Source: an uncultured Verrucomicrobiae bacterium | GTDB lineage: Bacteria; Verrucomicrobiota; Verrucomicrobiia; Chthoniobacterales; Chthoniobacteraceae | Direction of reading: 5' to 3' | Length of the DNA stretch: 64,000 nucleotides | Assembly: GCA_963769025.1 (NCBI GenBank) | Contig: CAVYKI010000012.1 | Coordinates: 537,151-601,150 of the forward strand | Shown here: positions 2,132 to 29,562 of the stretch, piece after piece | Layout: every line of letters starts with the position of its first letter | How positions within the stretch are numbered: position 1 is the stretch's first letter | The notes under the pieces: generated by a model | Told to the model about the DNA's origin: nothing | The model's database searches: none | The model's input: only the letters and a program-made list of their open reading frames with translations | Translations under genes and position numbers: made by a program

Positions 2132-2161
2132 ATCAGAGCAGGCAATGAGGGCAATTATTCC
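2132..2161 (-). promoter_or_regulatory. ECF-type promoter motif, copy 1
   Basis: GGAATAAT-N15-CTCTGAT on the minus strand, upstream of the beta-barrel gene. Confidence 0.8.
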
Positions 2162-2240
2162 ACGGCAATGCTCAGCGCCCCGTGGTGGGTGCGCTTACGA
2201 CGTCACGCAGTGGTCGGATAGCGGTGAGATCTAAGGCTGG

Positions 2241-3017
2241 TTATTTCTCCGTTTGAGCTGCTTGGTTTCTTCCGGGCTGCAGCCCGGAAGCTGTGAGCTG
2301 GTTTCGGACGAGACAGGCTGTGGCTCGCAAGAGCGACGGGCAGTAATGTTCTACCCGGAGCAAAGAGGGCAGGTCGTCCACGTCCTCCATCCGCGCGAAA
2401 GTATGAACGCTCATGCCGTGCGAGCGGATGTTGCGCTGCGTCTGTTCGAAGACCGCCGGTGTGCTCCACGCGATGTCGTCGAAGACAAACGCGTGTGAGC
2501 CGCTAAGGCCGATGAGCACGTAACCGCCATCGGTTGCTGGGATGAGGACGAAACTGAAGGAGTGCAACGCGGCAGCCGCATCGCGAAGGCGTTCGGTCGT
2601 GAGTTGTGGGCAGTCGCCGCCTGCAAAGAGAATCTCCCTCGCGCCGCGAGTGATTGTGTCCGCCAAAGTCGCGCGTAGGCGTGCGCCGAGGTCGCCTTCG
2701 GCTTGGGGATGAAACGTCGTTTGATCCGGCAGCAGCGGACCTAGCCAGTCGTGCATTTCCGCTCCAGACTCGGCTGGTGTGAAGTGAACCTCCACGCGCC
2801 AATCGCAAGGGACTTCCGCTGCTTGATGCTCGACGAGGCGGCGATAGACCTGCACAGCGGCGTCGTTGCCGATGCTCGCGGCGAGGCGGGTTTTCACTGC
2901 GCCGGGACGAGGCGCTTTCAGCATCAGGCAGAGTGTCGGGGGCATGTGCAGGAGTTCTGGTTTCAAGGCGAGATCAAGCAGGTTGCGCATCATCAAGTCG
3001 ATTGGCGGGGCGTTCAT
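2241..3017 (-). CDS. TIGR04282/DUF2064 (CofC-like) glycosyltransferase associated with arsenosugar/rSAM clusters
   Basis: KAPRPGAVKTRL, QAEGDLGARL, GGDCPQL, PATDGGYVLIG, IAWST and DVDD motifs. Confidence 0.9.
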   Translation of the reverse strand: MNAPPIDLMMRNLLDLALKPELLHMPPTLCLMLKAPRPGAVKTRLAASIGNDAAVQVYRRLVEHQAAEVPCDWRVEVHFTPAESGAEMHDWLGPLLPDQTTFHPQAEGDLGARLRATLADTITRGAREILFAGGDCPQLTTERLRDAAAALHSFSFVLIPATDGGYVLIGLSGSHAFVFDDIAWSTPAVFEQTQRNIRSHGMSVHTFARMEDVDDLPSLLRVEHYCPSLLRATACLVRNQLTASGLQPGRNQAAQTEK

Positions 3018-4327
3018 GTGCCGGGTTCAGGGATGGCTATGGTGCGCGTGGCGCATAATTCGGATCGCCCACGAGGGTGACGGTAGAGGCGCCTCGAGAG
3101 GAAGCCCGCGACGAAGGGCAGCCAGATGAGCGCGCGCTCCCACCAGGACAGCGTCCAGACTTCGCCGATGCTGATGCGGTGGCACATGATGAAGTAAAGC
3201 GTGCCGGTAATGTTCAGCGCGATGGTGCCGCGATTGCGCGTGAGCGCGGCGAAAGGCAGCAGCCAGGTGAAATACCAAGCGTGCATCATGGGCGAGAGCA
3301 GGAAAGCGGAGAACAGAAACCACTCGGCGGCATTGGCGAAGCGGCGGCAGCGGAAGATCGCGACGACCCACGCGGCGAGCAGCGGGGGAACGAAGAGGGT
3401 GTTGATCCACTCCTTGCCGGTCACCGCATCGAGCACCGCGGGGATAAGTTCCGCGCTCCGGGCGTAACGTGCGAATTCCATCGGTGCGAGGCTTGTCGTC
3501 CACTCGCCGCTCCACGAGCAGACCATGGCCCAAGAGAGCGCGAAGGGCAGTGCGCCCGCAGCCATGAGGAGCGAGGAGCGCCGGAAGCCTGCGGTTGTCG
3601 ATGTCTGCCACGCCATCCACGCGACGAGCGGCAGGGCCAGCCACTTGAAGGACACGGCGGTGCCTGCGAGCGCGACGGCGAGGAATGCGCGGCGTGGATT
3701 TGCCTCCCAAACGAGCCATGAGCCGACCAGCGCGAGGACGAACAGGCTGTCGTAATGGCCGCCGCCGGCGAAGCAGTAGAGCACGAGCGGATTCCACGCA
3801 TACACCAGCGCGCGCCTGGTGCCGAAGCGTCGCGCAAGCAGTCCGCAAACGGCGAGGTCAGCAATGGCGAAGACCGCTTTCATGCCCGTGACACCCGCGC
3901 CGATCCGCGTGAGGACGGCGAAGGTCATTTCCGACAGCGGCGGATAAATCGCCGTGCAATGCGGATGGCCGATCTTCACCCAAGTCGCATCGTGCAGCAG
4001 GCTCAGTTCGGGCGCGCTTGGCGGATACACGTAAGGATTGATGCCGCCGCTGAGCGCGTGCCCTTCCCACAGATAGCGGAAAATGTCGTCGCCCGGCTCC
4101 ATCGCGAGCAGCGCAAGCCGCAGGCCCGCCCCGACGATCCAAAACATCGCGACAGAAAATTTGCCAACGCGCAGCGCAGCGAGATAGCCGAGGCTCATCG
4201 TGGCCAAGCCGGTGAGAAACGGCGGCACTTCTCCGAAGTGGAGCAAATCGCCATGCGGCAGAATCCACGCCGCTCCCGTGAGCAGCAGCGCGAGCGCCGC
4301 GACTTGCCAGACCCGCACCGCGTTCAT
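3014..4327 (-). CDS. GT-C fold membrane glycosyltransferase (GT87/DUF2029-like)
   Basis: DDIFRYLWEG, GINPY, YPPL and YAWNPL...GHYD motifs; many hydrophobic segments. Confidence 0.8.
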   Translation of the reverse strand: MNAVRVWQVAALALLLTGAAWILPHGDLLHFGEVPPFLTGLATMSLGYLAALRVGKFSVAMFWIVGAGLRLALLAMEPGDDIFRYLWEGHALSGGINPYVYPPSAPELSLLHDATWVKIGHPHCTAIYPPLSEMTFAVLTRIGAGVTGMKAVFAIADLAVCGLLARRFGTRRALVYAWNPLVLYCFAGGGHYDSLFVLALVGSWLVWEANPRRAFLAVALAGTAVSFKWLALPLVAWMAWQTSTTAGFRRSSLLMAAGALPFALSWAMVCSWSGEWTTSLAPMEFARYARSAELIPAVLDAVTGKEWINTLFVPPLLAAWVVAIFRCRRFANAAEWFLFSAFLLSPMMHAWYFTWLLPFAALTRNRGTIALNITGTLYFIMCHRISIGEVWTLSWWERALIWLPFVAGFLSRRLYRHPRGRSELCATRTIAIPEPGT

Positions 4328-5083
4328 GCGCCGCGCTGTCCTCCGTGCCAGAGCCGGCGCAGCCAAAGCCGCACGATGGTCGAGAGGATCACGCTGCCCG
4401 CGCGCAGCGTGCCCATGATGGCGCCGGAGATTTTCGAGCGGTCCGCCCTGCCGCCGCCGGTAGCGCACGGGCACTTCGACGATGCGCAGTTTTTCCTCCA
4501 CGGCGCGCACCTGCATTTCGACGGTCCAGCCAAAGCCACGGTCGCGCATGGCGATGCGGTCGAGCGCGTCGCGGCGGATGAGGCGGAGCGGACCGAGGTC
4601 GGGGTAGCGGTGGCCCCAGCCGAGTTCGATGAGCGCGACGGCGAGCGCGTTGCCGAAATTTTGTTGCGGAGTCATCGCGGCACGATTCGCCGGCAGACCG
4701 CGGCGGTTGCCGAGCACGAGTTCCGCACCGAGCGCCCCGGGCAAAAAGCCACTGCAATTCGCCCAAGTCATCGCTCCCATCCGCGTCGCAAAAGAGCACC
4801 CATTCCACATCGTCGTCGAAGTCGATCATCCCGCGCCAGCAGGCGGCGCCGTAGCCGCGCCGCGGTTCGCTCAACACATCCGCGCCGTGCTGCACGGCGA
4901 CTTGCGCGGTGCGGTCGCGGCTGCCGTTGTCCACCACGCGGATGCGCTCCAGGCCCAGATGCCGCAAGTCCGTGAGCACGCGCGGCAGTGCGGCTTCCTC
5001 ATTGAGCGCGGGGATGATGCGCACGTCCGGGCGACGATTTGATCGGCGCGGGCTTCGGGTTTGGAATGGACGACGGACAGCAT
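4324..5083 (-). CDS. GT2 family glycosyltransferase (polyprenol-phosphate sugar synthase-like), frameshifted
   Basis: IIPALNEE, VVDNGSRDRT, GYGAAC, DADGSD and GWTVEMQ motifs spread over several frames. Confidence 0.85.
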
Positions 5084-5087
5084 GACG

Positions 5088-5117
5088 ATGCGAGCGGAAG
5101 TGCAGCTTGATTATTCC
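5088..5117 (-). promoter_or_regulatory. ECF-type promoter motif, copy 2
   Basis: GGAATAAT-N15-CTCGCAT, 4 nt before the ATG at 5083. Confidence 0.8.
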
Positions 5118-5192
5118 ATCGCCGGACAAGGGGCGCGGAATAAAGCAGCTGCACCCGGCGTCGTGAGTCCGAGTCCGTTGTGGGAAATGCGG

Positions 5193-5222
5193 AGAATAAA
5201 ACGGCGTCCGTGCCGCTCTGAT
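5193..5222 (+). promoter_or_regulatory. ECF-type promoter motif, copy 3
   Basis: AGAATAAA-N15-CTCTGAT, 5 nt before the ATG at 5228. Confidence 0.75.
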
Positions 5223-5227
5223 GCTGC

Positions 5228-5979
5228 ATGAACCTCGATTCGATCTTCCGCCGATGCACTGCACTGGCTTTCGCTCTGCTCCTCACTTCGTGCGCCAACG
5301 CGGCCGATCTTCCCGTGGCCGGGAACGCTGTATCGAAGGAATACGCGGGGTTGCTCAAGACTTACGTCACAGCGGGTGGGGTGCGCTATGCGGCGTGGAA
5401 GCAGAACGCTGCGGACCTGGCCGCGCTTAAAAGCGTGGCGGATTTTTATGCCGGCACGCTGCCGCCGAAGGATCGCGACGCCTCGCTGGCCTGGCACCTC
5501 AACGCCTACAATTCGTGGATTCTGCACAACATCCTCGCGAAGTATCCGACCAAGGGGCCGCTCGTCGGGGAGCCGCTTTTTTTCACGGCAACCGGATCAC
5601 CATCTCCGGGCGCAAGATGAGCTTCAACGACTTGGAGCAAAAGGTCATCCGCCCGACGTTCAAGGAACCGCGCGTGCATTTCGCGCTGAACTGCGCGAGC
5701 GCGAGCTGCCCGCCGCTCGCCTCGCGACCGTTCGATGCAGCGACGCTGAACGACCAGCTCGACCAGCTCACACGCGCTTTCATGAACGTAAATCCGCGGG
5801 CCATTATAGGCAGTGGCGGAAGCATCGCGCTCTCGAAAATCTTCGACTGGTATAAGGACGACTTCGCCGCAGCGGGTGGCTCGGTGGCGTTCATCAACCG
5901 CTATCGCAAGGAACCGCTCCCGGCGGGTGCGAAGGTGAAGTTCATGGACTACGACTGGTCGCTGAACGAAACGAAGTGA
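5228..5979 (+). CDS. DUF547 domain exported protein/lipoprotein, frameshift near 5580
   Basis: LLKTYV..GGVRY, LNAYN, PRVHFALNCASASCPPL, SKIFDWY and YDWSLN motifs. Confidence 0.9.
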
Positions 5980-5996
5980 CGCCGGTTCGAGCAAAT

Positions 5997-6026
5997 GGAA
6001 TAAATCGCCGCGCCAGCCGCTCACTT
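5997..6026 (+). promoter_or_regulatory. ECF-type promoter motif, copy 4 (autoregulatory position)
   Basis: GGAATAAA-N15-CTCACTT, 10 nt before the sigma factor ATG. Confidence 0.8.
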
Positions 6027-6036
6027 CGGCACGCAC

Positions 6037-6582
6037 ATGGATTTCGAAGCCATCGTCAGCCTCTATTACGAGGACCTTTACCGGTTTGCGTTCAGCCTCG
6101 CGCGCAACCGCGACGAGGCGTGCGACCTGACGCAGCAGACCTACGCCGTGTATGCGGAGAAGGGCGGACAGGTGCGCGAGCAGGCGAAGGTCAAGAGCTG
6201 GCTCTTCACCACGCTTTACCGCGAGTTCCTGCGGCTCCGCGAACGCGGACGCCGCCTCGTGAGCATGGACGATGAGGAAACCAACGTGCCGGAGCAGATG
6301 GCCGCGTCGGACACCGAGCGGTCGGCGGAGCACGCCGGGCTGCTCGACATCCTCGCAAGCCTCGACCAGGGGCACCGCGAAATTCTGACACTCTTTTACC
6401 TCCAGCAGCACGCTTACAAGGACATCGCCGGAATTCTCGAAGCGCCCATCGGCACGGTGATGTCGCGCCTTTCCCGAGCCAAGGAAGCGCTCCGCAAGAA
6501 ACTCGACGCCGTCACCCAAGAAAAAGGAATAATTATCATCCCCATCGACTCGAATCAGAAACGCCCCGCGAAAAATGGATAA
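6037..6582 (+). CDS. ECF RNA polymerase sigma factor
   Basis: Region 2 ACDLTQQT...KSWLF and region 4 YKDIAGILEAPIGTVMSRLSRAK. Confidence 0.95.
   Translation: MDFEAIVSLYYEDLYRFAFSLARNRDEACDLTQQTYAVYAEKGGQVREQAKVKSWLFTTLYREFLRLRERGRRLVSMDDEETNVPEQMAASDTERSAEHAGLLDILASLDQGHREILTLFYLQQHAYKDIAGILEAPIGTVMSRLSRAKEALRKKLDAVTQEKGIIIIPIDSNQKRPAKNG
6526..6555 (+). promoter_or_regulatory. ECF-type promoter motif, copy 5, inside the 3' end of the sigma gene
   Basis: GGAATAAT-N15-CTCGAAT, 19 nt before the anti-sigma ATG. Confidence 0.65.
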
Positions 6583-7324
6583 CGACCGCGCCAAAATACT
6601 TCTCAGTGCCTACCGCTCCGACGGAGCGGATGCGAGCGACCCGGTTTTTGCCGAAGCGCTGGCGCAGGCGGAGCGCGACCCGGAGCTGACGCGCTGGTTT
6701 GCCGAGGAACGCGCGCTCGATGATCGGATGCACGCCGCGCTTCGTTCGGTCCGTCCGCCCGCGAATCTCAGGGACGCCCTGCTGCTCACGGCGAAGGTGA
6801 GCCGGATGCCTACGCCGCGCGCCTGGTGGACGCGCCCCGCGTGGCTCGCCATCGCCGCGGCCATCGTGCTTTTCGCCGGGCTGGCCTTTGTTGCGCTGCG
6901 CCCGCATTCCACGCCTTTCACGATCGCCGGAGTGACTTCGGAAATCGGGCGTCTGCACCGCGCGGAGCGCATCTCGCTCGGCGCGATGACCAGCGACCCG
7001 GAGCAAATTCAGCGCTGGCTGAAAGAGCACGGTGGCCCGCACGATTTCACCGCACCCACCGGGCTGACCAGCCAGATGCGCCTCGGCTGCCAGGTGCTCG
7101 ACATCAACGGCAACAAAGTCTCGCTCGTTTGCTTCCAGATCGAAGGCGGGCAGTTGGTGCATCTGCTCGTCATGGATCGCCGCCGCCTCGCCGACCCGCC
7201 GGTCATCGGGAAACCGATCATGCTCCAGGAAGGTGAACTGGCCTTTGCCACTTGGTCCGAGGGCGACCGCACCTACGTCCTGGCCAGCAAGATCGGAGCA
7301 GACGAGCTGCGCAAATTCCTGTGA
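6575..7324 (+). CDS. Putative transmembrane anti-sigma factor
   Basis: Overlaps the sigma gene; N-terminal cytoplasmic domain, one TM helix, and a periplasmic domain with GCQV...SLVCF. Confidence 0.8.
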   Translation: MDNDRAKILLSAYRSDGADASDPVFAEALAQAERDPELTRWFAEERALDDRMHAALRSVRPPANLRDALLLTAKVSRMPTPRAWWTRPAWLAIAAAIVLFAGLAFVALRPHSTPFTIAGVTSEIGRLHRAERISLGAMTSDPEQIQRWLKEHGGPHDFTAPTGLTSQMRLGCQVLDINGNKVSLVCFQIEGGQLVHLLVMDRRRLADPPVIGKPIMLQEGELAFATWSEGDRTYVLASKIGADELRKFL

Positions 7325-7374
7325 CGCCCGGCTGGCGGGAGCGAAGGCGCGCATTTCACTCCAAGTAGCGGGAC

Positions 7375-7404
7375 GGAATAAACCCCCGCGCCGTTTGCTC
7401 GGAT
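7375..7404 (+). promoter_or_regulatory. ECF-type promoter motif, copy 6
   Basis: GGAATAAA-N15-CTCGGAT, 5 nt before the ATG at 7410. Confidence 0.8.
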
Positions 7405-7409
7405 GACCG

Positions 7410-8948
7410 ATGCTCGCGGACTTCGCTGCCGCCGTCGGCACTTTTGCCGGCGGCCTCTATCTCATCGCCTCACTCCTGCTCGTGGCCTACGTGGCCAATG
7501 GCTACGTGCTGCTCGCGCGCTGTCTGTGGACGCGCGGGCGCTCGGAGCGCGAGCGGCGGAGGCTGTTCGCGGAAGGCGCGAAAATGCTGGTGCTTGGCCG
7601 TGGCGAAGGCACGGCGATTGTGACGCAGATTCCGCTCTACAACGAGGCGACCGTCGCCGGGCGCATCATCCGCGCGGCGGCGGCGATGGAGTGGCCGCAC
7701 GGACGGCACACGGTGCAGGTCCTCGACGATTCGACGGACGAAACACGCGGCATCGTGGATGCGGTGGCTGCGCAGTTGCGCGCGGAGGGCGCGGATGTCG
7801 TGGTGGTGCGCCGCGCGGATCGTGCGGGCTTCAAGGCCGGCGCGCTCGCCCACGGGATGACGCTGTGCGAGGCGGAGTTCATCGCAATTTTCGACAGCGA
7901 CTTCGTGCCGCCGCCGGACTTTCTGCTGCGTGCCGTGCCCGCGCTCGTCGCCGACCCGAAGCTCGGCTGGGCGCAGGGCCGCTGGACTCATCTCAACGCC
8001 GACGACAACGTGCTGACTCGCGCGCAAGCGGCGGGCATCGACGCGCACTTCATCATCGAGCAACAGGCGCGCGCCGCGGGCTGGTTCATGAATTTCAACG
8101 GCACCGGCGGAGTCTGGCGTCGCCGCGCGATCGAGGACGCCGGCGGCTGGAGCGACGCGACGCTGACCGAAGACCTCGACCTTTCCTACCGCGCGCAACT
8201 CCGCGGCTGGCGCGGCCTCTTTCTCCCGGAAGTCGCCGTGCCGGGCGAAGTGCCCGCCGACGCGGCGGCGTTCAAGTGCCAGCAATTCCGCTGGGCGAAA
8301 GGCTCGCTGCAAACGGCCCTGCGGCTGCTCCCCGCCGTGCTGCGCTCGGAGCGTCCGATCGTGAAGAAAATCCAGGCCGTCTTTCATCTCACGAATTACC
8401 TCATGCACCCGCTGCTCGTCCTGCTCGTGCTGATGACGCCGTGGATGGCGCTCGCCTCGCCCACGCGCGGTGCGCTTTTCGCGTCGAGCGGATGGGCGGT
8501 GTTCGTCGCCGCCACGGTGTCCGGCTTCACCTACCTCTGCGGTCAGGCGATGCTCGGTCATCCGTGGCGCGTCGCCTTTGCGCGGCTCAACAGCCTGCTC
8601 GCCGCCGGCACCGGACCAGCGCTCACGAACGTGCGCGCGGCAATCGAGGCTCTCGTCGGCCACCGCAGCGAATTCGTGCGCACGCCAAAACAAGGCGGCT
8701 TCAAAGCGCACCGCTACCGCGCCCGCGCCATCACGCCGCCGTGGCTCGATGCTGCGTTTGGAATTTACGCCATCGCGTCCGTCATCATCTGCATCGCGCA
8801 AGGCTGGCTGGCCGCCGTGCCGATGCTCATTTTCGCCGCCAGCGGCAGCCTGTGCATGGTGCTGAAAGGCGACGCCACTTCGCCCGAGCCTCGCGTGCAT
8901 TCGGAAGGGCGAACCGTTGCAGAAATGGATGCGGCCGTCGAAGTCTGA
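7410..8948 (+). CDS. Cellulose-synthase-like GT2 membrane glycosyltransferase
   Basis: QIPLYNE, VLDDSTD, GFKAGAL, FDSD, TEDLD and QQFRW (D,D,D,QxxRW signature). Confidence 0.9.
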   Translation: MLADFAAAVGTFAGGLYLIASLLLVAYVANGYVLLARCLWTRGRSERERRRLFAEGAKMLVLGRGEGTAIVTQIPLYNEATVAGRIIRAAAAMEWPHGRHTVQVLDDSTDETRGIVDAVAAQLRAEGADVVVVRRADRAGFKAGALAHGMTLCEAEFIAIFDSDFVPPPDFLLRAVPALVADPKLGWAQGRWTHLNADDNVLTRAQAAGIDAHFIIEQQARAAGWFMNFNGTGGVWRRRAIEDAGGWSDATLTEDLDLSYRAQLRGWRGLFLPEVAVPGEVPADAAAFKCQQFRWAKGSLQTALRLLPAVLRSERPIVKKIQAVFHLTNYLMHPLLVLLVLMTPWMALASPTRGALFASSGWAVFVAATVSGFTYLCGQAMLGHPWRVAFARLNSLLAAGTGPALTNVRAAIEALVGHRSEFVRTPKQGGFKAHRYRARAITPPWLDAAFGIYAIASVIICIAQGWLAAVPMLIFAASGSLCMVLKGDATSPEPRVHSEGRTVAEMDAAVEV

Positions 8949-8997
8949 GTTGTCCGATACTTTCTACTGCGAATATGACGACCAACACTGAAGCTCC

Positions 8998-9600
8998 ATG
9001 ATGAAAACAATCCTGCTCACCGCGCTGTCGCTCTTCACTGCGACCTCACTTCTTGCCGAAAACCCCGCCGCAGGCCTGGCGGTCGGCGCGACCATCCCGG
9101 ACGTCACGCTCCGCACCGACAAGGACAAGGCATTCAACCTGCGCCGGGAGGTGGCTGAGAAACCGGCGGTGCTCATTTTCTATCGCGGCGGATGGTGTCC
9201 ATTCTGCACGCGGCATCTCTCGGCGCTCGCGAGCATCGAGAAGGATCTCACCGCCGCCGGGTTTCAGCTCCTCGCAATCAGCACGGACGCGCCGGCGAAG
9301 CTGCGCGAAAAGCCCGACTATCAGGCGCTGACCTACACGCTGCTATCCGACAGCACGATGGATGCGGCCAAGGCGTTTGGCATTGCCTTCAAAGTGACCG
9401 ATGACGTGCTCGCCAAATACAAGGGCTTCGGCATCGATCTCGAAGCCGCCTCGGGCCAGACGCATCATCTCCTGCCGCATCCCGCCGTCTTCGTCGTCGA
9501 TCAGGCGGGCATCATCCGCTTCGCGCATGTGAACCCCGATTACAAATCGCGGCTCGACCCCGCGAAAATCCTCGAAGCCGCGCGCGACGCAAAGCCGTGA
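8998..9600 (+). CDS. Exported peroxiredoxin-like AhpC/TSA family protein
   Basis: Signal peptide, FYRGGWCPFC and LPHPAVFVVD. Confidence 0.85.
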   Translation: MMKTILLTALSLFTATSLLAENPAAGLAVGATIPDVTLRTDKDKAFNLRREVAEKPAVLIFYRGGWCPFCTRHLSALASIEKDLTAAGFQLLAISTDAPAKLREKPDYQALTYTLLSDSTMDAAKAFGIAFKVTDDVLAKYKGFGIDLEAASGQTHHLLPHPAVFVVDQAGIIRFAHVNPDYKSRLDPAKILEAARDAKP

Positions 9601-9720
9601 GTCGCCGCGTCTGCTCGACCGGCCCATGCTCGCCCGCGCACTCAAAGTCCCGCTCATCGTCGGCACGCTGTTGAATCTCATCAACAGCGGCGACGCGCTC
9701 CTCGCCGGGCACCTGCCGCC
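9597..9720 (+). pseudogene. N-terminal fragment of an NrtS-like small membrane protein
   Basis: RALKVPLIVGTLLNLINSGDAL, then abrupt loss of similarity. Confidence 0.55.
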
Positions 9721-9873
9721 AAGCGCGTCGCCGAGCTCATCGACCAGGGCGAACTCACCGCCACTGCCAACGACAACCTCAGCCCGATCAACGCCGAGAA
9801 CATCCTCGAAGGCCACCGCCGCCTCGAATCTGGCAGAAGCATCGGCAAGCTCACCATCTCAGGGTGGAAATGA
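9721..9873 (+). pseudogene. C-terminal fragment of a zinc-binding alcohol dehydrogenase/quinone reductase family protein
   Basis: KRVAELIDQGEL...PINAENILEGHRRLESGRSIGKLTISGWK*; no upstream part. Confidence 0.65.
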
Positions 9874-9906
9874 GCCCGATCTCTGACAAACCAAACAACG
9901 ACCACT

Positions 9907-10030: not shown

Positions 10031-10056
10031 GCTCCGCGCGCCATCCCTATTCCACC

Positions 10057-11782: not shown

Positions 11783-11800
11783 GCCTACAACTGAGGCGGA

Positions 11801-13307: not shown

Positions 13308-13389
13308 GGGTCTTCTTTAGCTGCTGCGATTCATACTCTTTGAGGATACCCGCTCTGCCGCGTCAGGCATCACGCTTCTCCGACAATGC

Positions 13390-16246: not shown

Positions 16247-16249
16247 CGG

Positions 16250-17122
16250 TCACCTCCAGAACATCAAAAAGTCCAGCACGCGATCGCGGATCATCTTCGC
16301 CCGGCTGTAGCTTTGGCCGTTGTCGGACTGGTCGTTGAGGCCCCAGTTGTAAGGCAGGTAGCTGATTTCGTATTCGCCCGCTTCAAGAAAGCTCCGATCG
16401 GCATCCGGTCCGTAGCGGGCGAGGATTTTCTTCACGCCGCCTGCCTTCTCGAAGTCAACGGCGAACCATGTGAAGATGCTGGAAATCTGCGCGGAACTTC
16501 GGTGCGGCTCGAAATGGTTGAGATCGTTGCGACCGAGCCATTCGTGAAAGGCGTTGTCGATCTGCGAGTCGAGCGCGGACGCGTTGTAGGCAGAGCGCTG
16601 CAAAGGCGGGCAACTGCGCGCGGCGCAGACGAGCACTGCGTGTGCGCGGTAGCCGAGGAGCGGGCGCAGCGTGCCATGCTCGATGTCATTGAGCGCGACT
16701 TTCTGACCGCCGACCTCGTGCCGTCTCACGCCGAACGAATCGCTCAACGACTGGATGCTCGCGGTGGGATGGTTCTTGAGAATCCAACGGACGGTGAGCG
16801 CGTTGTAGAGATTGATGAGCGCCGCAGCCTTTTCATCGCCGGTCGCCGGCTGCGCGGGCTTCGGCTCGAACTGCCGCAGATAGTCGTCGAGCGCGCGAAG
16901 GTCTTCCGCGTTTGCTTTCCATGTGCCGTAGGCGACCAGGCCTTTCGCATCGACATATTTTTTCAAGAGCCGGTCGTAAGACTCGTTCGCGAGGCCCGCG
17001 GGCACTTCGATGGCGGAAGGCGGCGGCCCCGTCCGGCTGCGGAGAAACGCGCGCGTGCCGATGCCGGCGACGAACACGAGGACGACCAGCGCGATCAGCT
17101 TTTTCGTTTTGGTCAGTTTCAT
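16250..17122 (-). CDS. DUF547 domain protein (second copy)
   Basis: LLKKYVD, INLYNA, HAVLVCAARSCPPL, SSIFTWF and YNWGLND motifs. Confidence 0.9.
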   Translation of the reverse strand: MKLTKTKKLIALVVLVFVAGIGTRAFLRSRTGPPPSAIEVPAGLANESYDRLLKKYVDAKGLVAYGTWKANAEDLRALDDYLRQFEPKPAQPATGDEKAAALINLYNALTVRWILKNHPTASIQSLSDSFGVRRHEVGGQKVALNDIEHGTLRPLLGYRAHAVLVCAARSCPPLQRSAYNASALDSQIDNAFHEWLGRNDLNHFEPHRSSAQISSIFTWFAVDFEKAGGVKKILARYGPDADRSFLEAGEYEISYLPYNWGLNDQSDNGQSYSRAKMIRDRVLDFLMFWR

Positions 17123-23465: not shown

Positions 23466-23495
23466 GGAATAAACGTCAGCGCCGTTCGCTCATTT
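23466..23495 (+). promoter_or_regulatory. ECF-type promoter motif, copy 7
   Basis: GGAATAAA-N15-CTCATTT, 9 nt before the ATG at 23505. Confidence 0.8.
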
Positions 23496-23504: not shown

Positions 23505-24657
23505 ATGAAAACCGAAACTGCCGTCAAAGAACGTTACAGCGCCGCGGCCAAAGCGCCGGAAGCCGCGCTTTGCTGCCCGGTCGAATACGACACCCGCTAT
23601 CTCAAAATCATCCCGCCCGAAGTCATCGAGAAGGACTACGGCTGCGGCGATCCTTCGCGCTGGGTGCAGCCAGGCGAGACCGTGCTCGACCTCGGCTCGG
23701 GCACGGGAAAAATCTGTTTCATCGCCGCGCAGGTCGTCGGAGCGAAGGGCAGGGTCATCGGCGTGGATATGACGGACGACATGCTCGAAGTCGCGCGCCG
23801 CAACGCGCCCATCGTCGCCGAGCGCATCGGCTACGCGAACGTCGAGTTTCGCAAGGGCCGCATCCAGGACCTCGCGCTCGATCTGGAAATGCTCGATGCG
23901 GAATTGAAGAAGCGGCCCATCACGGATGCCGCGTCATTTCTCGCCGCCGATGAACTCGCCGACGAACTGCGCGTGCAGCCGTCCGCTCGTCGCGAGCGAA
24001 TCGCGTCGATGTCGTCGTCTCGAATTGCGTGCTCAATCTCGTCGAGCCGCGCGCGAAGCGGCAGCTCTTCGAGGAGATTTTCCGCGTGCTGAAAAAAGGC
24101 GGACGCGCCGTCATTTCCGACATCGTGGCCGACGAGGAAGTGCCCGACGCGATGCAGCAAGACCCGACGCTCTGGAGCGGCTGCATCTCCGGCGCGCTGA
24201 CGGAGGAAGGCTTTCTTGCAAGCGTTCGCCGACGCGGGCTTTTACGGCATCGAGCTGCTCAAGCGCGACACGCAGCCGTGGCAGACCGTCGAGGGCATCG
24301 AGTTCCGCTCCGTCACGGTGCAGGCGTTCAAGGGCAAACAAGGCGCGTGTTTCGAGCGCAACCAGGCGGTGATTTACCTCGGCCCGTTCCGCGAAGTGCT
24401 CGACGACGACGGCCATCGCATGGAACGCGGCGTCCGCTACGCCGTCTGCGACAAGACCTACCAGCTCTACCGCAAGGCGCCCTACGCGCGAGTTCTTCGA
24501 GTTCATCGAACCGCTCACCGAAGTGCCGCTGGAAAACGCCGCGCCCTTCGCCTGCGAGCGCACGACGCCGCCGCCACCCGCGCGAAACCAAGGGCCTCGA
24601 ATACCGACGCCACCACCGCCGCCTCGCAGTGCTGCGATGGCGGGAAGCTGCTGCTAA
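23505..24657 (+). CDS. ArsM-like SAM-dependent methyltransferase, frameshifted
   Basis: ALCCP, YGCGDP, VLDLGSGTG, SNCVLNL, LWSGCISGAL and a Cys-pair tail. Confidence 0.8.
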
Positions 24658-24677
24658 TATCACGCCTCACTTTCACC

Positions 24678-25134
24678 ATGCAAAACCAAGACAAACTGCA
24701 ACTGCTCGCCCTCGATCTCACCAAAGCCTTTCCGCGCAGCCCGCGGGAGACGCTCGCCGGCTACGTCATCGCCGGACGCACGCTCGACAAATGCCGCGCC
24801 GTCGTCGCCGGCACGAACGGCGAGTATCACTACGACTGCCCGCTGGACCGCCAGTTCCTCGGCTTCACCGGCATCGAGGCCGGCGCGTTCAAGGAATTCG
24901 TCGCGACCGGCGCCACCGATGCGGAGGTCGCCGACTGGATCACCGCGCACTCGAAGGTGAAGGACCGCGCGGAAATCGTGCAATGGAACAACAAGCTGCG
25001 CGCACATGCGCCCGTGCGACATGTCGCTGGAGTTGCAGCTTTTCCTCGAAGACTACATCCCGCAGTTCATCCGCAAGAACCGCCCGGTGTATGTCTGGTT
25101 CGATGTCTATGACATCGAGGAACAGCGCATCTGA
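24678..25134 (+). CDS. DUF5069 domain protein, frameshift near 25000
   Basis: PRSPRETLAGY..AGRTLDKCRA...GEYHYDCPLD..FL.F.GI. Confidence 0.8.
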
Positions 25135-25151
25135 TCGGCCAGATTCTTCCC

Positions 25152-26271
25152 ATGCTCGTCACCCTGCTCTTCATCGCCGTCTGTTTCCTCGCGTTCGCAA
25201 ACGGCGCGAACGACAACTTCAAAGGCGTCGCGAGCCTGTATGGCAGCGGGACGTGCGGCTATCGGAAGGCGCTCGCCTGGGCCACGGTGACGACGCTCGC
25301 GGGCAGCGTGGCTGCGCTCTTTCTCGCGCAGGCGTTGCTGGCGAAATTCAGCGGCAAAGGGCTGGTGTCCGCGAGCCTCGTGGCGTCGCCGCATTTCCTC
25401 CTCGCCGTCGCGCTCGGCGCGGGCGGCACGGTGCTGCTGGCCGCGCGGTTCGGCTTTCCGATTTCGACCACGCACGGACTTACCGGAGCGCTCGTCGGCG
25501 CCGGACTCGCCGCGGGCGGGGCGGTGAACTTCGGGCAGTTGGGCAGCGCCTTCGTCCTGCCGCTCGTGCTCAGTCCGCTGCTCGCCGTCGTGCGTGGGCG
25601 CGGTGGTGTATCTCGGCTTTCGATTCGCGCGGCTGCGGCTCGGCGTCACGAAGGAAATGTGCGTCTGCGCGGGCGTGGAAGAGCAGGTCATCGCGCTCCC
25701 GCAGCCCGGCGGGATTTTCGCCGCGCAAATGCTGCCGACGCTCTCGATCGCCGTGGACAATCCCGCAGCCTGCGCCCAGCGCTACGCGGGCCGCGTGCTC
25801 GGCGTGAACGCGCGCAGCTTGCTCGACTCGCTGCATTTTCTCAGCGCCGGTGCGGTCAGCTTTGCGCGCGGGCTGAATGACACGCCGAAGATTGCCGCGC
25901 TGCTGCTCGTCGCCGCCGCGCTCGATTTGCGCTGGGGCCTGCTCGCCGTCGCGGTGGCGATGGCGCTCGGCGGCATCCTCGGGGCACGCCGCGTCGCGGA
26001 AACGATGAGCCACAAGCTCACGGAGATGAACCCCGGCCAGGGCTTCGCCGCGAATCTTTCCACCGCGCTGCTCGTCACCACCGCGAGCTTCCACGGCCTG
26101 CCGGTGAGCACCACGCACGTCAGCGTCGGCGCGCTGCTCGGCATGGGCGCCGTCACCGGGCAGGCGCACTGGCGTCCCGTGCTCGGCGTGCTCGCCTCGT
26201 GGGTCGTCACGCTGCCGTGCGCTGCGCTCCTCGCGGCGCTCGCGGGCTGGCTGGTGCGCTCGATTTCCTGA
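25152..26271 (+). CDS. PiT family inorganic phosphate transporter, frameshift near 25594
   Basis: ANGANDN, FPISTTH, RGLNDTPK and LPVSTTH. Confidence 0.88.
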
Positions 26272-26275: not shown

Positions 26276-27261
26276 ATGAATCGCTTCGACGAAAAACTCT
26301 CCGCCCACGGCCTGAGCGCTCATGCGCTCGCGCTTGCAGACGCTGCAGATCAACGTGGGCCGCAAATGCAACCAGACCTGCCGCCACTGCCACGTGGATG
26401 CCGGGCCGTGGCGCACGGAGATGATGGATGAGCCGACCGCGCATCGCATCGGCGCATGGATTCGCGAGCATCGCCCGCCCGATCGTGGACATCACCGGCG
26501 GCGCACCGGAGCTGAGCGAGTTCTTTCGTTACTTCGTCGAGACGGCGCGCGCGTGCGGCGCGCATGTCATCGACCGCAACAACCTCACGATCATCGAAGA
26601 GCGCGAACTTCGCGCTGGCTGCCGGAGTATCTCGCGGAGCACGAGGTCGAGGTCGATCGCTTCGCTGCCCTGCTACTCCGCGGAGAATGTGAACGCAGCA
26701 GCGCGGCGACGGCGTGTTCGACAAAAGCATCTCCGCGCTCTGAAGAAGCTGAACGCCGTCGGCTACGGCACGCGACTGCCGCTGAACCTCGTTTACAATC
26801 CGCTCGGCGCGACGCTGCCCGGCCCGCAGGCGGAACTGGAGGCCGATTACAAGGAAGCGCTGCAGCGCGATTTCGGCATCGTCTTCAACCGACTTTTCAC
26901 GATCACGAACCAGCCCATCGCCCGCTTCGCCGAAGATCTGCGCGCGCAAGGCAAGTGGGACGAATACCTCGAACTGCTCGTCGAACGCCTTCAATCCCGC
27001 GACCGTCGAAGGACTGATGTGCCGCTCCACGCTGAGCGTCGGCTAGCGCGGCGAAGCTCTTCGACTGCGACTTCAACCAGATGCTCGGGATGCAATTGCG
27101 CAATGGCACGCCGCTGTTCCTGTGGGATGTGACGCCGGAATACCTCGACGGCCGGCACCATCGGCACCGGCGATCCATTGCCTCGCCTGCACCGCGGCTG
27201 CGGGAGCAGTTGCACCGGGGAGACGATCGACGCCATGCAGGCGGTCGCTGCTGCGGGATGA
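26276..27261 (+). CDS. arsS: Arsenosugar biosynthesis radical SAM protein (TIGR04167 type), frameshifted
   Basis: LQINVGRKCNQTCRHCHVDAGP, DITGGAPEL, SLPCY, LNLVYNP, DCDFNQ and C-terminal HC.ACTA..GSSC.G. Confidence 0.9.
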
Positions 27262-27294: not shown

Positions 27295-28149
27295 CTATGA
27301 ACGCCGAGACGGACACAGCCAGCCCAACTCCATCCAAGTGGCGAACCAATCGCGGACTTTCGCGGCGGCTTCCTCGTCGCCGGTGTGCGATTTGGCGAAG
27401 GCGGACGCGCACGCGCCTTCGAGCGAGGCTCCGGCATTGAGCGCGGTGAGCAGCGGAACGCTTCGGGGTCGAGGCGCTTGTAATAAGACGGAGAGATTGA
27501 CGCGATGGACGGCGAGGTGGATCGGCGTGCGGCTCGGGCGCGCGGCGATGCGCGGGCCGGCGGCGCGTGACGTGGCGGCGACGGCGTTGCTGAACGTGCC
27601 GGTTTCGATCGTGGCTGTCCTTGAGCTTGCGCAGCAGTTCGTCGACCGGATGCGCGAGTTCGAGCAGCGTGAGGTAGGGCTGGAGGCCGAGGCGCAGCTG
27701 GTCCGCGGGGTTTGCGGCGAGCCTCGCCGGGTCGAGCGGCGGCCGCTCCGGCTCGTCGAAGGCGATGACGCGCGCCCATTCGACGCGCGCCATGTCGAGG
27801 GCGAGGGCGCGTGCGGCGCGGTGAGTTCGGGATGCGCGTTCGGAGGAAAGCCGGCAGAGCTGGCCCGAGGTCGCGCAGCGTCCACGACGTCGATCCGCAC
27901 GCTCTCGAGATACGCGACCGCGAGCCGGTCGAACTTCCGCTCGCCGAGCACGGCGCGCAGCCCGCGGAAGTCCTCGCCGAAACGAGCCGAGCAGCCGCCA
28001 CCAGTACTGCTGGTTGTAGATCTGGAGCCGCTCGAAGGACGTGAGCCGGTCGTTCGGCTTGATGAACCGCGCCGCCACGTCCGCGGCGGGCGAGCCGTCT
28101 TTCCAGCGTCGGCTGCATGCCGTCGTCCGGCAGCGAGCGGGCGCATCAC
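27295..28149 (-). CDS. bufC: DUF2063 MNIO partner protein (BufC/HvfC-like), frameshifted
   Basis: [29 protein letters not shown] and DMARVEWA; coupled to the DUF692 gene. Confidence 0.82.
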
Positions 28150-29057
28150 GGCGGCGGGCCATCAGCCGCTGGACTTCCGGCCGAGGCGATCGCGCGCGTT
28201 ACGCGGCGAGCGTCGCTGGCATCGGGCAGAAATCGGTTGGCCTTGAGCGCCTCGCGATGCACTTCGTCGAAGCTCGGGAATGCGGTCGTCCCATTCGAGC
28301 AGCGTGGCGGTGCGGCCGCAGCGCTGCGATGGCGTGCGCGTAGAGCTTCCACACGGGATCGAGCACCGGATGATCGTGCGTATCGAGGATGTAGCGCTCG
28401 AACTTCGTGTGGCCGGCGATGTGGATCTGCGCGACGCGCTCGCGCGGGCACGGCGTCGAGGTAGTCGTACGGATCGAAGCCGTGGTTCTTCGAGGAGACG
28501 TAGATGTTGTTCACGTCGAGCAGGATTCCGCAGTCGGCGCGCTCGACGACTTCGCTGAGGAATTCCCACTCGGTCATCTCGCGAGACGTGGAACTCCGCG
28601 TAGCTGCTCACGTTCTCCACCGCGACGGGGACTCCGAGAAAGTCCTGCACCTCGCGGATGTTGCGCGCGGTGCGCTTCGACCGCCTCCCACGTGTAGGGC
28701 ATCGGCAGCAGGTCGTGCGTGTAGCGGCCGTCGACGCTGCCCCAGCAGAGGTGGTCGGAGAGCCACGGCGTCTTCGTGCGCTTGGTCGAGCGCCTTGAGC
28801 TTGCTGCAGATGGTCGCGGTTCGGCCGCGCGGCGTTGCCGAAGTACATCGAGACGCCGTGCTGCACGACGCGGTACTGCTCGAGGATCTGGTCGAGCACG
28901 TGCGAGCGGGCGGCCCGCCATCGACCATGTAGTTTTCCGAGATGATCTCGAACCAATCGACGACCGGCTTCTTCTCGAGGATGTGCTGGTAGTGCGGGAT
29001 GCGCAGGCCGATGCCGATGCCGTAGTCGGTGAAGCCGTTGAAGCGGGTGGCGGGCAT
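28146..29057 (-). CDS. bufB: DUF692 multinuclear non-heme iron oxidase (MNIO, BufB-like), frameshifted
   Basis: [52 protein letters not shown] and LLEWD motifs. Confidence 0.92.
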
Positions 29058-29163
29058 GGGGAAAATGCGATGGCGACTGCGATTGGGCGCACGGCGATCA
29101 CCGATCGTGACTCGCGAGCGGGCTCCGGCGCGATGCGGAGCCAGAGCCTCGATCGGGGTCTGG

Positions 29164-29475
29164 TTACTTACAGCGTCGTGTGCGACCGGCTTGCCGTCCT
29201 TCACGGCGCAGCCGCCCTTGCCTTTGCAGGAGTTCTTGCCGGCGCAGCCGTTGTCGCCGCGTCTTGCAGCCGCCCTTGCCCTTGCAGGAGTTCTTGCCTT
29301 TGCAGTCGTGGGTTTCGCCTTTCTTTTCGTCGGCGAGGACGCCGGCCTGCTGGCTGTCGGCATTCTTCTTGAACGCCGTGCCGTTATTCGAGGCGGCATT
29401 GGCTTTGGCGGTAAAGCCGCCCATGAGGATGCCCGCGAGCGCAGCGCCAGCGAGCAGAGTCTTCGTGTTTTTCAT
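29164..29475 (-). CDS. Exported Cys-rich RiPP precursor (bufferin BufA2-like), one or two indels
   Basis: Signal peptide and two repeats, [13 protein letters not shown] and [13 protein letters not shown], directly upstream of DUF692. Confidence 0.85.
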
Positions 29476-29532
29476 TTGGTGTTGTGTACTTTGGTTTTGG
29501 TTTTAAACGACGCGGAATGCGGCGTTCGGGCG

Positions 29533-29562
29533 ATCAGAGCAGACAGCCTCGGGAATTATTCC
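29533..29562 (-). promoter_or_regulatory. ECF-type promoter motif, copy 8
   Basis: GGAATAAT-N15-CTCTGAT upstream of the RiPP precursor. Confidence 0.8.

Follow-up and report, generated by a model that had tools for sequence, protein, structure and literature searches.

The window, a stretch of 64,000 nucleotides of verrucomicrobial DNA, raises the question of whether one ECF sigma factor could govern genes as different as a bufferin-type RiPP cluster, an ArsM/ArsS operon and four glycosyltransferases, as an earlier note had proposed from a motif shared by their upstream regions. The best explanation, to which we give a probability of about 0.72, is that this motif is read by the sigma factor encoded at 6037 (-35 GGAATA, -10 CTCnnA/T) and drives an envelope-stress, bufferin and ArsM/ArsS regulon. 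Computation gave the motif, the degree to which it is conserved, its tie to the sigma factor and its target set; transcription, sensing chemistry, inducer and pathway product are inferences.

A probable promoter motif with strict matches at one locus

The motif sites are:

2132..2161, minus strand: putative promoter of a decayed bufA paralog, whose remnant extends to about 1985, before the barrel gene
5088..5117, minus strand: putative promoter of the GT2-GT87-TIGR04282 operon (pattern, matrix, conservation in relatives)
5193..5222, plus strand: putative promoter, AGAATAA variant, of the DUF547 gene (pattern, matrix, conservation in relatives)
5997..6026, plus strand: putative autoregulatory promoter of the sigma gene
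6526..6555, plus strand: internal motif in the 3' end of the sigma gene, predicted to drive the anti-sigma gene
7375..7404, plus strand: putative promoter of the CESA-like glycosyltransferase and redoxin genes (pattern, conservation in relatives)
23466..23495, plus strand: putative promoter of the ArsM operon (pattern, matrix, ArsS-region survey)
29533..29562, minus strand: putative promoter of bufA-bufB-bufC (pattern, matrix, alignment with the 2161 copy)

All eight matches to RGAATAAW-N15-CTCNNWT were recovered with the coordinates, strands and 15-nt spacer first reported, G preceding CTC in seven of them. The 5.34 Mb genome contains no further strict match, and all eight lie inside 27.4 kb; the other ten spacer lengths between 10 and 20 gave no match genome-wide, and neither did 100 dinucleotide shuffles. 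Each site had been described as lying upstream of a gene: all eight are indeed oriented into one, but 6526 lies within the sigma gene and 2161 belongs to the bufA remnant. The cargo between 9.6 and 22.9 kb yielded no site, as had been stated. All motif boxes in the window are intact; many of the target genes are frameshifted. Tests of the strict pattern are partly circular because it was derived from the same eight sites; a non-circular matrix was assembled from other genomes, using 52 sites that precede related sigma genes there, plus eight hand-added C-variant -35 words. The genome scan with this matrix, a check that the earlier note had suggested, placed seven of the eight window sites within the top 8, site 5193 (AGAATAA) coming at rank 21. 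Rank 1 fell outside the window, upstream of a putative nfeD-like gene; since this site is missing at all nine nfeD loci of the same genus, it is probably due to chance.

Of 76 related sigma genes in other genomes, 52 have the GGAATA..CTC motif ahead of them, and 1.17 Mb yielded 71 forward sites against 0 for the reversed-pattern controls. Metagenomic relatives (~81% DNA identity) keep 86 of 88 box positions and 66 of 112 spacer positions, and the distance from the CTC box to the start codon peaks at 11-12 nt (33/105 sites). At the internal site 6526, GGAATA/CTC is invariant in 10 of 10 aligned genes, which were picked as site carriers, despite differing peptides, and it includes ATA, which is seldom used here for Ile (5 of 289). 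Very probably the motif serves as promoter for a stress ECF sigma factor of Verrucomicrobia.

The sigma factor and its anti-sigma

6037..6582, plus strand: ECF sigma factor of 181 aa; the residue of region 4.2 that reads -31 is Met
6575..7324, plus strand: one-TM anti-sigma, with a helical N-terminal anti-sigma domain, TM 89-107 and an outer alpha/beta domain

The 6037-type clade, mostly verrucomicrobial and widespread in Verrucomicrobiia, appears to be uncharacterised. The motif follows its presence. Of 41 genomes with the sigma, 20 have the motif in ArsS regions, against 0 of 16 lacking the sigma; the corresponding counts before msrB are 13 of 39 and 0 of 20, related genomes not being independent in these or any other two-by-two counts given here. 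The identity of one region-4 residue goes with that of the fifth base in the -35 box (Met with T, 78/78; Lys or Gln with C, 13/13), and this residue occupies the position found by Todor et al. to set -31 (PMC7776599); as two changes on the tree suffice to explain the Lys/Gln-C pairing, this pairing represents few independent events.

In the outer domain of the anti-sigma, Cys172 and Cys186 lie on neighbouring beta-strands of the structure model (pLDDT 93); among 149 homologs, 90% keep the former and 95% the latter, and the sequence contains no zinc motif. The two cysteines could simply form a structural disulfide. Transcription of the anti-sigma gene from the internal 6526 promoter is predicted to give negative feedback.

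Glycosyltransferases and the ArsM/ArsS pathway

2241..3017, minus strand: TIGR04282 / DUF2064 'arsenosugar biosynthesis' transferase (167.8 bits, cut-off 134)
3014..4330, minus strand: multi-membrane GT87/MptA-like (GT-C) glycosyltransferase (Atlas 0.99, hydropathy)
4330..5083, minus strand: GT2, polyprenol-phosphate glycosyltransferase type, frameshifted (CTC box to start codon, 11 nt)
5228..5979, plus strand: DUF547 protein with a signal-like sequence at its N-terminus and a single frameshift around 5580
7410..8948, plus strand: CESA-like membrane GT2, the rarer subtype, neighbouring GT87 in 7/11 loci
15074..17122, minus strand: second DUF547 and frameshifted TIGR03169-like FAD oxidoreductase, cluster-type genes with no motif of their own
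23505..24660, plus strand: ArsM-like methyltransferase, frameshifted, with equivalents of CmArsM Cys72, Cys174 and Cys224
24678..25135, plus strand: DUF5069 protein, frameshifted (family match)
25152..26271, plus strand: PiT-family phosphate (arsenate?) transporter, frameshifted (family match)
26276..27261, plus strand: ArsS radical SAM enzyme, frameshifted (TIGR04167, DUF3641; CX3CX2C present)

The gene identities proposed earlier hold, TIGR04282 passing its cut-off and the GT87-like label coming from the Atlas only (cluster members PF26314 82-88%, GT87 23-34%); a Pfam search with this protein gave no hit. Assignment of the GT2 to TIGR04283 was rejected in favour of the polyprenol-phosphate type, and the ArsM-like protein scores below every ArsM cut-off. 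The glycosyltransferases had been taken for a separate arm of envelope glycosylation. This view is not supported. In other genomes, too, ArsM/ArsS share their neighbourhood with genes of the TIGR04282, GT2, GT87-like, CESA-like and DUF547 kinds, and the four glycosyltransferases and ArsM/ArsS are best read as one pathway, of arsenosugar type. The additional DUF5069, PiT, polyprenol-type GT2, GT87-like and CESA-like proteins suggest a lipid-linked product. In 688 kb of ArsS regions we found 39 motif sites against 1 control, and in 18 of the 20 motif-bearing genomes they aim into genes of the ars cluster. A second, intact ArsM-ArsS operon of the same genome, on C3, has no site, so the pathway would also work independently of the 6037 sigma.

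Bufferin and redox targets

874..2000, minus strand: putative beta-barrel protein with signal peptide (label from the earlier note, no family hit)
8998..9600, plus strand: AhpC/TSA redoxin with a CxxC and a signal-like N-terminus, probably on one transcript with the CESA-like gene
27313..28249, minus strand: frameshifted BufC-like protein, a partner for the MNIO enzyme, homologous to the gene that follows bufB in L137
28236..29018, minus strand: BufB-like MNIO (DUF692) maturase, frameshifted (family match)
29164..29475, minus strand: Buf2-like precursor, signal-like leader, six Cys across two frames

The barrel gene had been counted among the targets. The site before it, at 2161, belongs to what is left of the bufA paralog (its promoter, its leader and some 25 initial codons, aligning with 29562 from the -35 box), none of 26 other barrel loci has a site, nor does the paralog on C3 (72-75% identical), and the gene does not appear to be a conserved regulon member. 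Seven of 30 bufB loci carry the motif, every one in a genome with a Met-type sigma (7/9, a split chosen after the data were seen), compared to 0/11 with other sigma types and 0/10 without sigma; presence or absence of sigma alone gives no significant difference (7/20 vs 0/10, p=0.064).

The redoxin was missing from the first gene list; a 66% homolog lies in the sigma-ArsM-ArsS operon of L216. Clade-wide, the commonest other targets are Msr (methionine-sulfoxide reductases), thioredoxin-fold and DoxX proteins, which the original framing of metal chelation and arsenic misses. Because such proteins dominate, the regulon looks like one of envelope oxidant/thiol stress, which hints that the arsenic-sugar pathway may answer such stress, beyond arsenic alone. 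In the window genome itself, msrB has no site and msrA a loose match only. All three arms (arsM/arsS, bufferin, msrB) carry the motif in at least three other genomes (G381, G398, G440), so that the combination is more than a local coincidence, in agreement with the single predicted regulon of ArsM/ArsS, glycosyltransferases and Buf2-like cluster first put forward. Any one target is preceded by a site in only one third to one half of the sigma-positive genomes; the regulon is therefore loose.

Proposed mechanism and alternatives

At rest, as gene order and fold suggest, the one-TM anti-sigma would hold the sigma factor; by analogy with NrsF, oxidants or thiol-reactive metal(loid)s acting on its outer Cys domain would free it. 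The freed sigma would then transcribe its own gene and, through the internal promoter, extra anti-sigma as a brake, together with envelope redox and repair genes (redoxin and DUF547 here; MsrA/B, TlpA-like, DUF1223 and DoxX in relatives), the Buf2-like metal-binding RiPP and the arsenosugar-type ArsM-ArsS-glycosyltransferase pathway, from mRNAs that may often be leaderless or short-leader.

In this genome the regulon probably sits on an acquired island, whose left edge is marked by:

78..656, plus strand: tyrosine-recombinase (integrase) fragment

The promoters might be real and the island nevertheless decaying, its combination of genes no longer functional here. At least ten genes are frameshifted in the assembly (among them GT2, DUF547, ArsM, DUF5069, PiT, ArsS and BufA/B/C), a bufA remnant is present, cargo splits the cluster, GT2 and CESA are also broken in some relatives, and the motif-less ArsM/ArsS operon is intact elsewhere. 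Yet the longer in-frame pieces of broken genes remain about 60-86% identical at the protein level (82-85% for the ArsM N-terminus), the promoter boxes are whole, and the flavoprotein of the C3 operon has a frame break too, as assembly indels would give. We regard decay as possible though unlikely; it would leave the clade-level regulon untouched.

In Caulobacter, SigF controls buf1 and buf2, which Cu induces (PMC11626156), and NrsF likewise has two periplasmic Cys (PMC3511200), in the portions of these papers available, which together with the motif at 7/30 Buf2-like loci could point to a copper/heavy-metal regulon carrying the ArsM/ArsS genes as passengers. This is improbable: bufB is absent from most ArsS genomes (match in 9/58), targets of the Msr and thioredoxin-fold kinds are more numerous than metal genes, the 41 annotated other targets include no copper efflux or multicopper oxidase gene, and ArsM/ArsS sites recur across many families, unlike passengers.

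An arsenic-specific response is doubtful as well. In it, As(III) on the anti-sigma Cys pair would induce the methylation/arsenosugar genes and PiT, the redox and bufferin genes mending damage. As(III) binds dithiols, the sigma gene sits inside 8 of 59 ArsS regions, PiT is part of the ArsM-ArsS operon in the window, as it is in several other loci, and no acr3 was found in the 83%-complete genome. ArsS, however, is present in only 62 of 301 class genomes whereas the sigma is common, and the motif occurs at msrB and bufA in genomes without a listed ArsS match (e.g. G173, G200, G282). In one study, moreover, Synechocystis arsM was induced by neither arsenite nor arsenate, an earlier report having differed, according to the accessible part of PMC4010505.

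That another ECF sigma of the genome reads the sites is very improbable: at least one, on C10, has Met at the same region-4 position, but the sites cluster near the 6037 gene and follow its clade's presence (0/16 and 0/20 where absent), and the invariant Arg62 of region 2 in this clade, Asn in SigH, may account for the unusual CTC box. Chance, duplication or coding bias, suggested by the post hoc pattern, the paralogous copies at 2161 and 29562 and the coding position of 6526, is refuted by the independent matrix ranking, the near-zero reversed-pattern controls, also in ArsS regions, and the greater conservation of boxes than spacer, and is opposed by the invariant internal site.

Comparison with known systems

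The preferred reading, control by the 6037 sigma, recalls several described systems. Haemophilus influenzae RpoE2/HrsE and Neisseria SigE (ECF13, now ECF293) run periplasmic MsrAB and a DoxX-DUF692-DUF2063-peptide operon, with HOCl as the inducer; their anti-sigma is small and soluble, unlike the one-TM protein with outer Cys-pair domain and no zinc motif found here, and the available text describes no ArsM/ArsS or glycosyltransferase arm (PMC7907618). Caulobacter SigF/NrsF (ECF16) and Azospira SigF control buf1, buf2 and a YedY-type reductase in response to Cu, Cr, Cd or reactive chlorine, and NrsF shares the two conserved periplasmic Cys; as far as the available accounts go, the promoter (GTAACC-N16-CGAA) and the six-TM DUF1109 anti-sigma differ, and arsenosugar genes are absent (PMC3511200, PMC11626156, PMC4436054). 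The 6037 sigma looks distinct from RpoE2 and SigF, with a similar regulon theme. Buf2 clusters were reported without sigma genes in the consulted part of PMC12452194, whereas here the sigma often adjoins Buf2-like clusters.

ECF26/ECF207 share the -35 GGAATAAA, autoregulation and a one-TM anti-sigma; in the text available their -10 is GTT or GTC in place of CTC, and ECF207 anti-sigmas bear an HX3CX2C zinc motif (PMC7826278). The gammaproteobacterial ECF28 group (DUF3379 anti-sigma) also has a one-TM anti-sigma, and the window shows weak similarity to DUF3379 and PRK12517, below both cut-offs (32.1 vs 33.2 and 82 vs 197 bits); the promoters of ECF28 are described, in the extract available, as non-conserved and its context as fatty-acid/aromatic genes. 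The earlier note knew of no description of the combination: the searched literature gave no account of the 6037 clade or of an ECF-run ArsM/ArsS arm, but ECF control of MNIO-peptide clusters together with Msr-type repair is already published (PMC7907618, PMC11626156, PMC3511200, each available in part). The cyanobacterial ArsM-ArsS pathway and the TIGR04167/TIGR04282/TIGR04283 set (ArsS chemistry reviewed in PMC12159101, available in part) share an ArsM-like methyltransferase, ArsS, TIGR04282 and DUF547 with this locus, which differs in its ArsM below the ArsM cut-offs, its extra DUF5069, PiT and glycosyltransferases, and its predicted ECF control.

A predicted promoter for a clade of ECF sigma factors

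All eight copies of a bipartite motif with a 15-nt spacer, listed in an earlier note, were present exactly as described. The elements concerned are the following.

874..2000 (-): putative beta-barrel gene, with a site at 2161 (-)
5117 (-): site before the GT2 gene 4330-5083
5193 (+): site before a DUF547 gene
5997 (+): site before the sigma gene
6037..6582 (+): ECF sigma gene (the window sigma)
6526 (+): site inside the 3' end of the sigma gene
6575..7324 (+): anti-sigma gene
7375 (+): site before the CESA-like glycosyltransferase gene
23466 (+): site before the ArsM operon
29562 (-): site before bufA, in a Buf2-like bufA-bufB-bufC cluster

With the strict pattern these were the sole matches in the 5.34-Mb source genome, and other spacers from 10 to 20 nt gave none. 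Since this pattern was derived from the same eight sites, a matrix was built from other genomes and supplemented manually with 8 C-variant -35 words. In the genome scan with this matrix, seven window sites ranked within the top eight and 5193 was 21st. A relaxed GGAAT...CTC site was located at most 200 nt upstream of 52 of the 76 related sigma genes (80 sigma loci minus four with too little upstream DNA); apart from the added words, the matrix was made from these 52 sites. The motif is thus bipartite, has a fixed spacer and lies 5' of the cognate sigma across orthologs, as expected of an ECF autoregulatory promoter, and we regard it as the predicted promoter of the window sigma's clade.

In metagenomic relatives whose DNA is about 81% identical, the motif is retained in front of GT2, DUF547, sigma, anti-sigma and the CESA-like gene. 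Over eight non-coding comparisons with these relatives, 86/88 box positions were identical, versus only 66/112 in the spacers. A loose pattern applied to 61 relatives matched in 58 of them and was too noisy to use. A start codon was found 11-12 nt from the CTC box in 33/105 sites, and likewise at window sites 5117, 5193 and 7375; this clustering predicts leaderless mRNAs. A Sigma-70 promoter scan of window positions 1-12000 returned none. In the metagenomic relatives (L432-L434), extra sites also precede DUF3179-like and short uncharacterised ORFs. GT2 is truncated and the CESA-like gene is split there, and ArsR-like and phosphate-ABC-like genes lie close by (labels judged from sequence). Elsewhere in the source genome, a candidate 17.6-bit site, weaker than the main ones, precedes a small exported CCxxC protein resembling a metal-binding domain (contig C9, position 679528, minus strand; L441). 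An nfeD-like candidate on the same contig was discarded, being conserved in 0 of 9 same-genus loci.

The window sigma passes TIGR02937 (70.5 vs 42.9 bits) and contains regions 2 and 4 only, as in group 4 ECF factors. Its relatives occur throughout Verrucomicrobiia (in Opitutales, Chthoniobacterales, Verrucomicrobiales and Limisphaerales, judging from record titles). A region-4 residue in the GTVxSR motif, presumably the equivalent of RpoE Arg171 (from a motif alignment with the RpoE sequence), covaries with the fifth -35 base. In a sample of 144 sigmas (48 without a site, 5 with an unread residue), Met accompanied T in 78/78 cases and Lys or Gln accompanied C in 13/13, the Lys/Gln state corresponding to two changes on a quick tree, so that the covariation reflects few events. 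The window sigma has Met. Arg171 of RpoE sets the -31 base, according to PMC7776599. A long-branch family member from a Photobacterium genome (L098) has a GGAAC-type site and a region-4 Lys. The neighbours of the 80 sigma loci, once clustered, were mostly housekeeping genes, and the regulon is usually dispersed.

By the features compared here, the sigma/anti-sigma pair does not fit ECF16, ECF13/293, ECF207 or ECF28, and has only the -35 box in common with ECF26. ECF16 (SigF/NrsF) combines a six-TM DUF1109 anti-sigma with a GTAACC-N16-CGAA promoter, whereas the window anti-sigma has one TM and no DUF1109 match, and the motif differs. In ECF13/ECF293 (Neisseria SigE, H. influenzae RpoE2) the anti-sigma at +1 is a soluble zinc-finger protein; here it is a 249-aa membrane protein whose N-terminal domain lacks Cys. 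ECF26 and ECF207 share the -35 GGAATAAA but have GTT/GTC at -10 instead of CTC, and the HX3CX2C zinc motif of ECF207 anti-sigmas is absent. As for ECF28, the DUF3379 anti-sigma model was a near miss (32.1 vs 33.2 bits) and the sigma stayed below the PRK12517 cut-off (82.4 vs 197 bits).

An internal site and the anti-sigma

In the subclade of the window sigma, 9/10 members have site 6526. All 10/10 aligned carriers share GGAATA and CTC unchanged, with differing peptides, and the site uses an ATA codon (5/289 Ile codons in clean genes are ATA). On these grounds we consider the internal site real; it would provide more anti-sigma and hence negative feedback.

The anti-sigma structure model (pLDDT 93) comprises a helical N-terminal domain, a single TM helix and, on the outer side, an alpha/beta domain. 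The N-terminal domain resembles MucA and RsiW (VIA matches, Z 5.3-5.5) and the outer domain gave a middling VIA match to MucB/RseB (Z 8, rmsd 2.8-3.7, 90-97 aligned); such fold matches, drawn from a model, show no function. A Foldseek search with the anti-sigma gave no match at E<=0.001. The anti-sigma has just two Cys, located on adjacent strands, with conservation of 90% and 95% across 149 homologs.

The ArsM/ArsS arm and its transferases

The window ArsM aligns with Cys 72, 174 and 224 of CmArsM; for Cys 44 the alignment is inexact, the nearest candidate being a Cys-Cys pair at a distance of 5-6 residues. Its intact paralog on contig C3 stays below the ArsM family cut-offs (337 vs 500, 209 vs 263 and 131 vs 400 bits). 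The frameshifted window ArsS retains CX3CX2C and a DUF3641 C-terminus, its pieces scoring 62 and 183 bits against 300 for TIGR04167, which the intact C3 paralog passes at 420 bits. The ArsM/ArsS/TIGR04282 gene set is already named in NCBIfam.

A phylum-wide ArsM search reached only 2 other genomes and was replaced by class-wide searches, in which ArsS was found in 62/301 genomes. The sample consisted of 59 regions from 58 genomes (the source genome, G384, G251 and G291 omitted) plus one G287 region. It contained 39 sites; the reversed DNA gave 1. Sites occurred in 20/41 sigma-positive and 0/16 sigma-negative genomes (Fisher p=0.0004, a significance inflated by kinship; G386, which has a site and whose sigma is split, was set aside). 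In 18 of these 20 the sites point into ArsM, ArsS, DUF5069, DUF547, transferase or flavoprotein genes or their operons; the G256 site points to msrB and that of G365 points away. The sigma gene itself lay inside 8/59 regions.

The earlier note had also placed four glycosyltransferases in the regulon as a separate envelope arm. Their sites are confirmed, but a separate arm is not supported, since these genes and DUF547 co-locate with ArsM/ArsS elsewhere and are best read as one arsenosugar-type pathway. The TIGR04282 transferase scores 167.8 bits (cut-off 134). The N-terminal piece of the GT2 fails TIGR04283 (34.6 vs 182 bits), AglJ-type models scoring higher, and this polyprenol-type GT2 with its GT-C partner suggests that the pathway may yield a lipid-linked product. 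The CESA-like subtype adjoins GT87 in 7/11 loci; as a conserved direct target it was rejected, with one strong and one weak site in those 11 loci and sites in 0/18 housekeeping paralogs, and the case for it is weak outside close relatives. The redoxin at 8998 is probably part of the 7375 operon. The cargo includes further cluster-type genes lacking the promoter motif (a TIGR03169-like oxidoreductase and a second DUF547 at 17122, upstream of which a hidden site was sought and none found).

The bufferin arm and the beta-barrel gene

The window precursor has a signal peptide (by eye) and six Cys and lies beside MNIO and BufC, as in Buf2 clusters, although these genes are frameshifted. NF050166 (BufA2, cut-off 60) had no match to the window fragment and gave 35 and 43 bits for intact homologs, while the maturase, in pieces, best matched NF050167 (BufB), whose cut-off was passed in 45/201 class genomes. 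Of the bufB loci in 47 genomes, the top 30 were examined and seven had a strong site; the opposite strand and the gene interior had none. These sites followed sigma type: 7/9 genomes with the Met type, 0/11 with other types and 0/10 with no sigma; presence versus absence alone gave p=0.064. Six bufB loci of one family without the window motif (L129, L132, L133, L136, L142, L143) have another ECF-like element upstream of bufA (GGAACCAA, about 14 nt, GCATCC), which suggests that Buf2 clusters there may have been rewired to another sigma.

Site 2161 can be aligned to 29562 starting at the -35 box and continuing over the leader and roughly 25 bufA codons. It is a bufA pseudogene remnant, which leaves seven independent sites. 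The adjacent beta-barrel gene, previously put forward as a regulon member, was dropped: sites were present in 0/26 other barrel loci (27 of 28 listed loci examined, the second piece of one split gene omitted).

Methionine sulfoxide reductases and other targets

When all loci were pooled we counted 173 non-redundant sites and 0 in reversed controls, 81 of the 173 preceding sigma genes and overlapping the training set. Forty-one targets were unlike the window genes: MsrB (8, one fused to MsrA), MsrA (1), TlpA-like redoxins (4), thioredoxin-like proteins (3), DUF1223 (4), DUF1440 (2), disulfide oxidoreductases (2), one each of DoxX, DUF417, AhpD-like, YHS, DUF3179 and DUF4142, two evident chance matches and nine without family. 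The DUF417 target corresponds to RclC. As the pooled loci are biased towards the surroundings of sigma, ArsS and bufB genes, msrB was tested directly. Sites preceded it in 13/39 sigma-positive and 0/20 sigma-negative genomes (p=0.0025, overstated by kinship; the test covered 75 of 80 matches, the other five being downstream tandem copies). An msrB site also occurred in 5/15 genomes with an ars site (G256, whose sole site is that of msrB, not counted), and ars, bufferin and msrB genes all had sites in three genomes of two families (G381, G398, G440).

Proposed mechanism

Oxidant or thiol-reactive stress at the envelope would release the sigma, and free sigma would switch on repair genes, chelation genes and the ArsM/ArsS pathway; we give this reading a probability of roughly 0.7, the identity of the inducer being, on our analysis, its weakest step. 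One stress regulon joining ArsM/ArsS, transferases and bufferin, as proposed in the earlier note, is kept as a predicted regulon, its inducer now read as most likely oxidant or thiol stress. Its targets are similar to those of the HOCl-responsive H. influenzae RpoE2 (msrAB and a DoxX/DUF692 operon; PMC7907618), Caulobacter SigF/NrsF (metals, two periplasmic Cys; PMC3511200; buf1 and buf2, PMC11626156) and Azospira SigF/NrsF (reactive chlorine; PMC4436054). Against the oxidant/thiol reading, the source genome's own msrB has no site, and any one target is preceded by a site in only 1/3-1/2 of sigma-positive genomes.

Control of the regulon by arsenic only is less likely, because genomes without an ArsS match use the sigma for msrB and bufA and because Synechocystis arsM showed no arsenic induction in one study (PMC4010505). 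A further reading, which we hold to be improbable, would make the 'arsenosugar' set an oxidant-stress route, arsenic detoxification not being its main role. ArsM, ArsS and the four transferases would build a methylated As- (or Se/S-) sugar or a glycolipid of this kind in the envelope, and this product would act as an oxidant sink that can be recycled, beside Msr repair and bufferin chelation. Such a role would explain why the set is wired to a sigma for envelope oxidant/thiol stress instead of an arsenic repressor.

ECF control of Msr and of MNIO-peptide clusters is already known. Our literature search turned up no account of this sigma clade or its promoter, nor of arsM/arsS being under ECF control, a statement that primary papers and regulon datasets may qualify. 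The predicted regulon supplies a consensus promoter, a residue for its recognition and a set of targets for an ECF clade that is widespread and unstudied; hardly any regulons have been mapped in the phylum. The regulon also offers a candidate regulator for verrucomicrobial Buf2 clusters, for which PMC12452194 reports no sigma genes, and puts the ArsM/ArsS pathway under one predicted switch with methionine and thiol repair. It points to a candidate inducer and bears on the purpose of bacterial arsenosugars and on the enzymes that finish the pathway, the four co-regulated transferases, DUF547, DUF5069 and PiT being candidates for the missing steps.

Genomic setting

On the quick tree the window sigma groups with sigmas of other orders and not with a 12-member same-genus clade; an AU test rejects its union with 11 same-genus sigmas (p=4.5e-5, the group having been picked after seeing the tree). 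An integrase fragment lies at 78-656 and phage-like replication genes at 51-63 kb. Together with a motif-less operon on C3, these features suggest that the regulon region is an acquired island. Frameshifts affect at least 10 genes, for which assembly error is a likelier cause than decay.

The C3 operon (189394-196335, minus strand; partly L114) is a second, largely intact ArsM-DUF5069-ArsS operon with no motif upstream. It encodes a MerA-like flavoprotein, ArsM, DUF5069, ArsS, desaturase-like and TVP38-like proteins and a fused TIGR04282-TIGR04283-like ORF, labels other than ArsM/ArsS being judged from sequence. A tRNA-Sec gene is present on contig C2 (89537-89633); in-frame TGA codons were sought within the ArsS matches and none was seen.

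Other parts of the window were as follows.

9907-15063: cargo with a frameshifted alkyl-sulfatase (perhaps with a short N-terminal fragment fused to it), a split K+/H+ antiporter and an LCAT-like lipase; among the fetched loci, the lipase has its sole homolog in an ArsS cluster (L227)
31413-43962 (-): sulfur-handling block without the motif: two SoxB-like metallophosphoesterases, DsrE, a DsbH-like thioredoxin, split SulP, rhodanese-YeeE/TsuA transporters, DUF2243 and DUF6132
50816-63268: phage/ICE-like genes: split DNA polymerase A, primase-polymerase, PIF1 helicase, PD-(D/E)XK nuclease, NGO0469-type replication protein, HTH and IrrE-like peptidase
45132-49727: intact 1531-aa CheB-CheR-PAS hybrid histidine kinase
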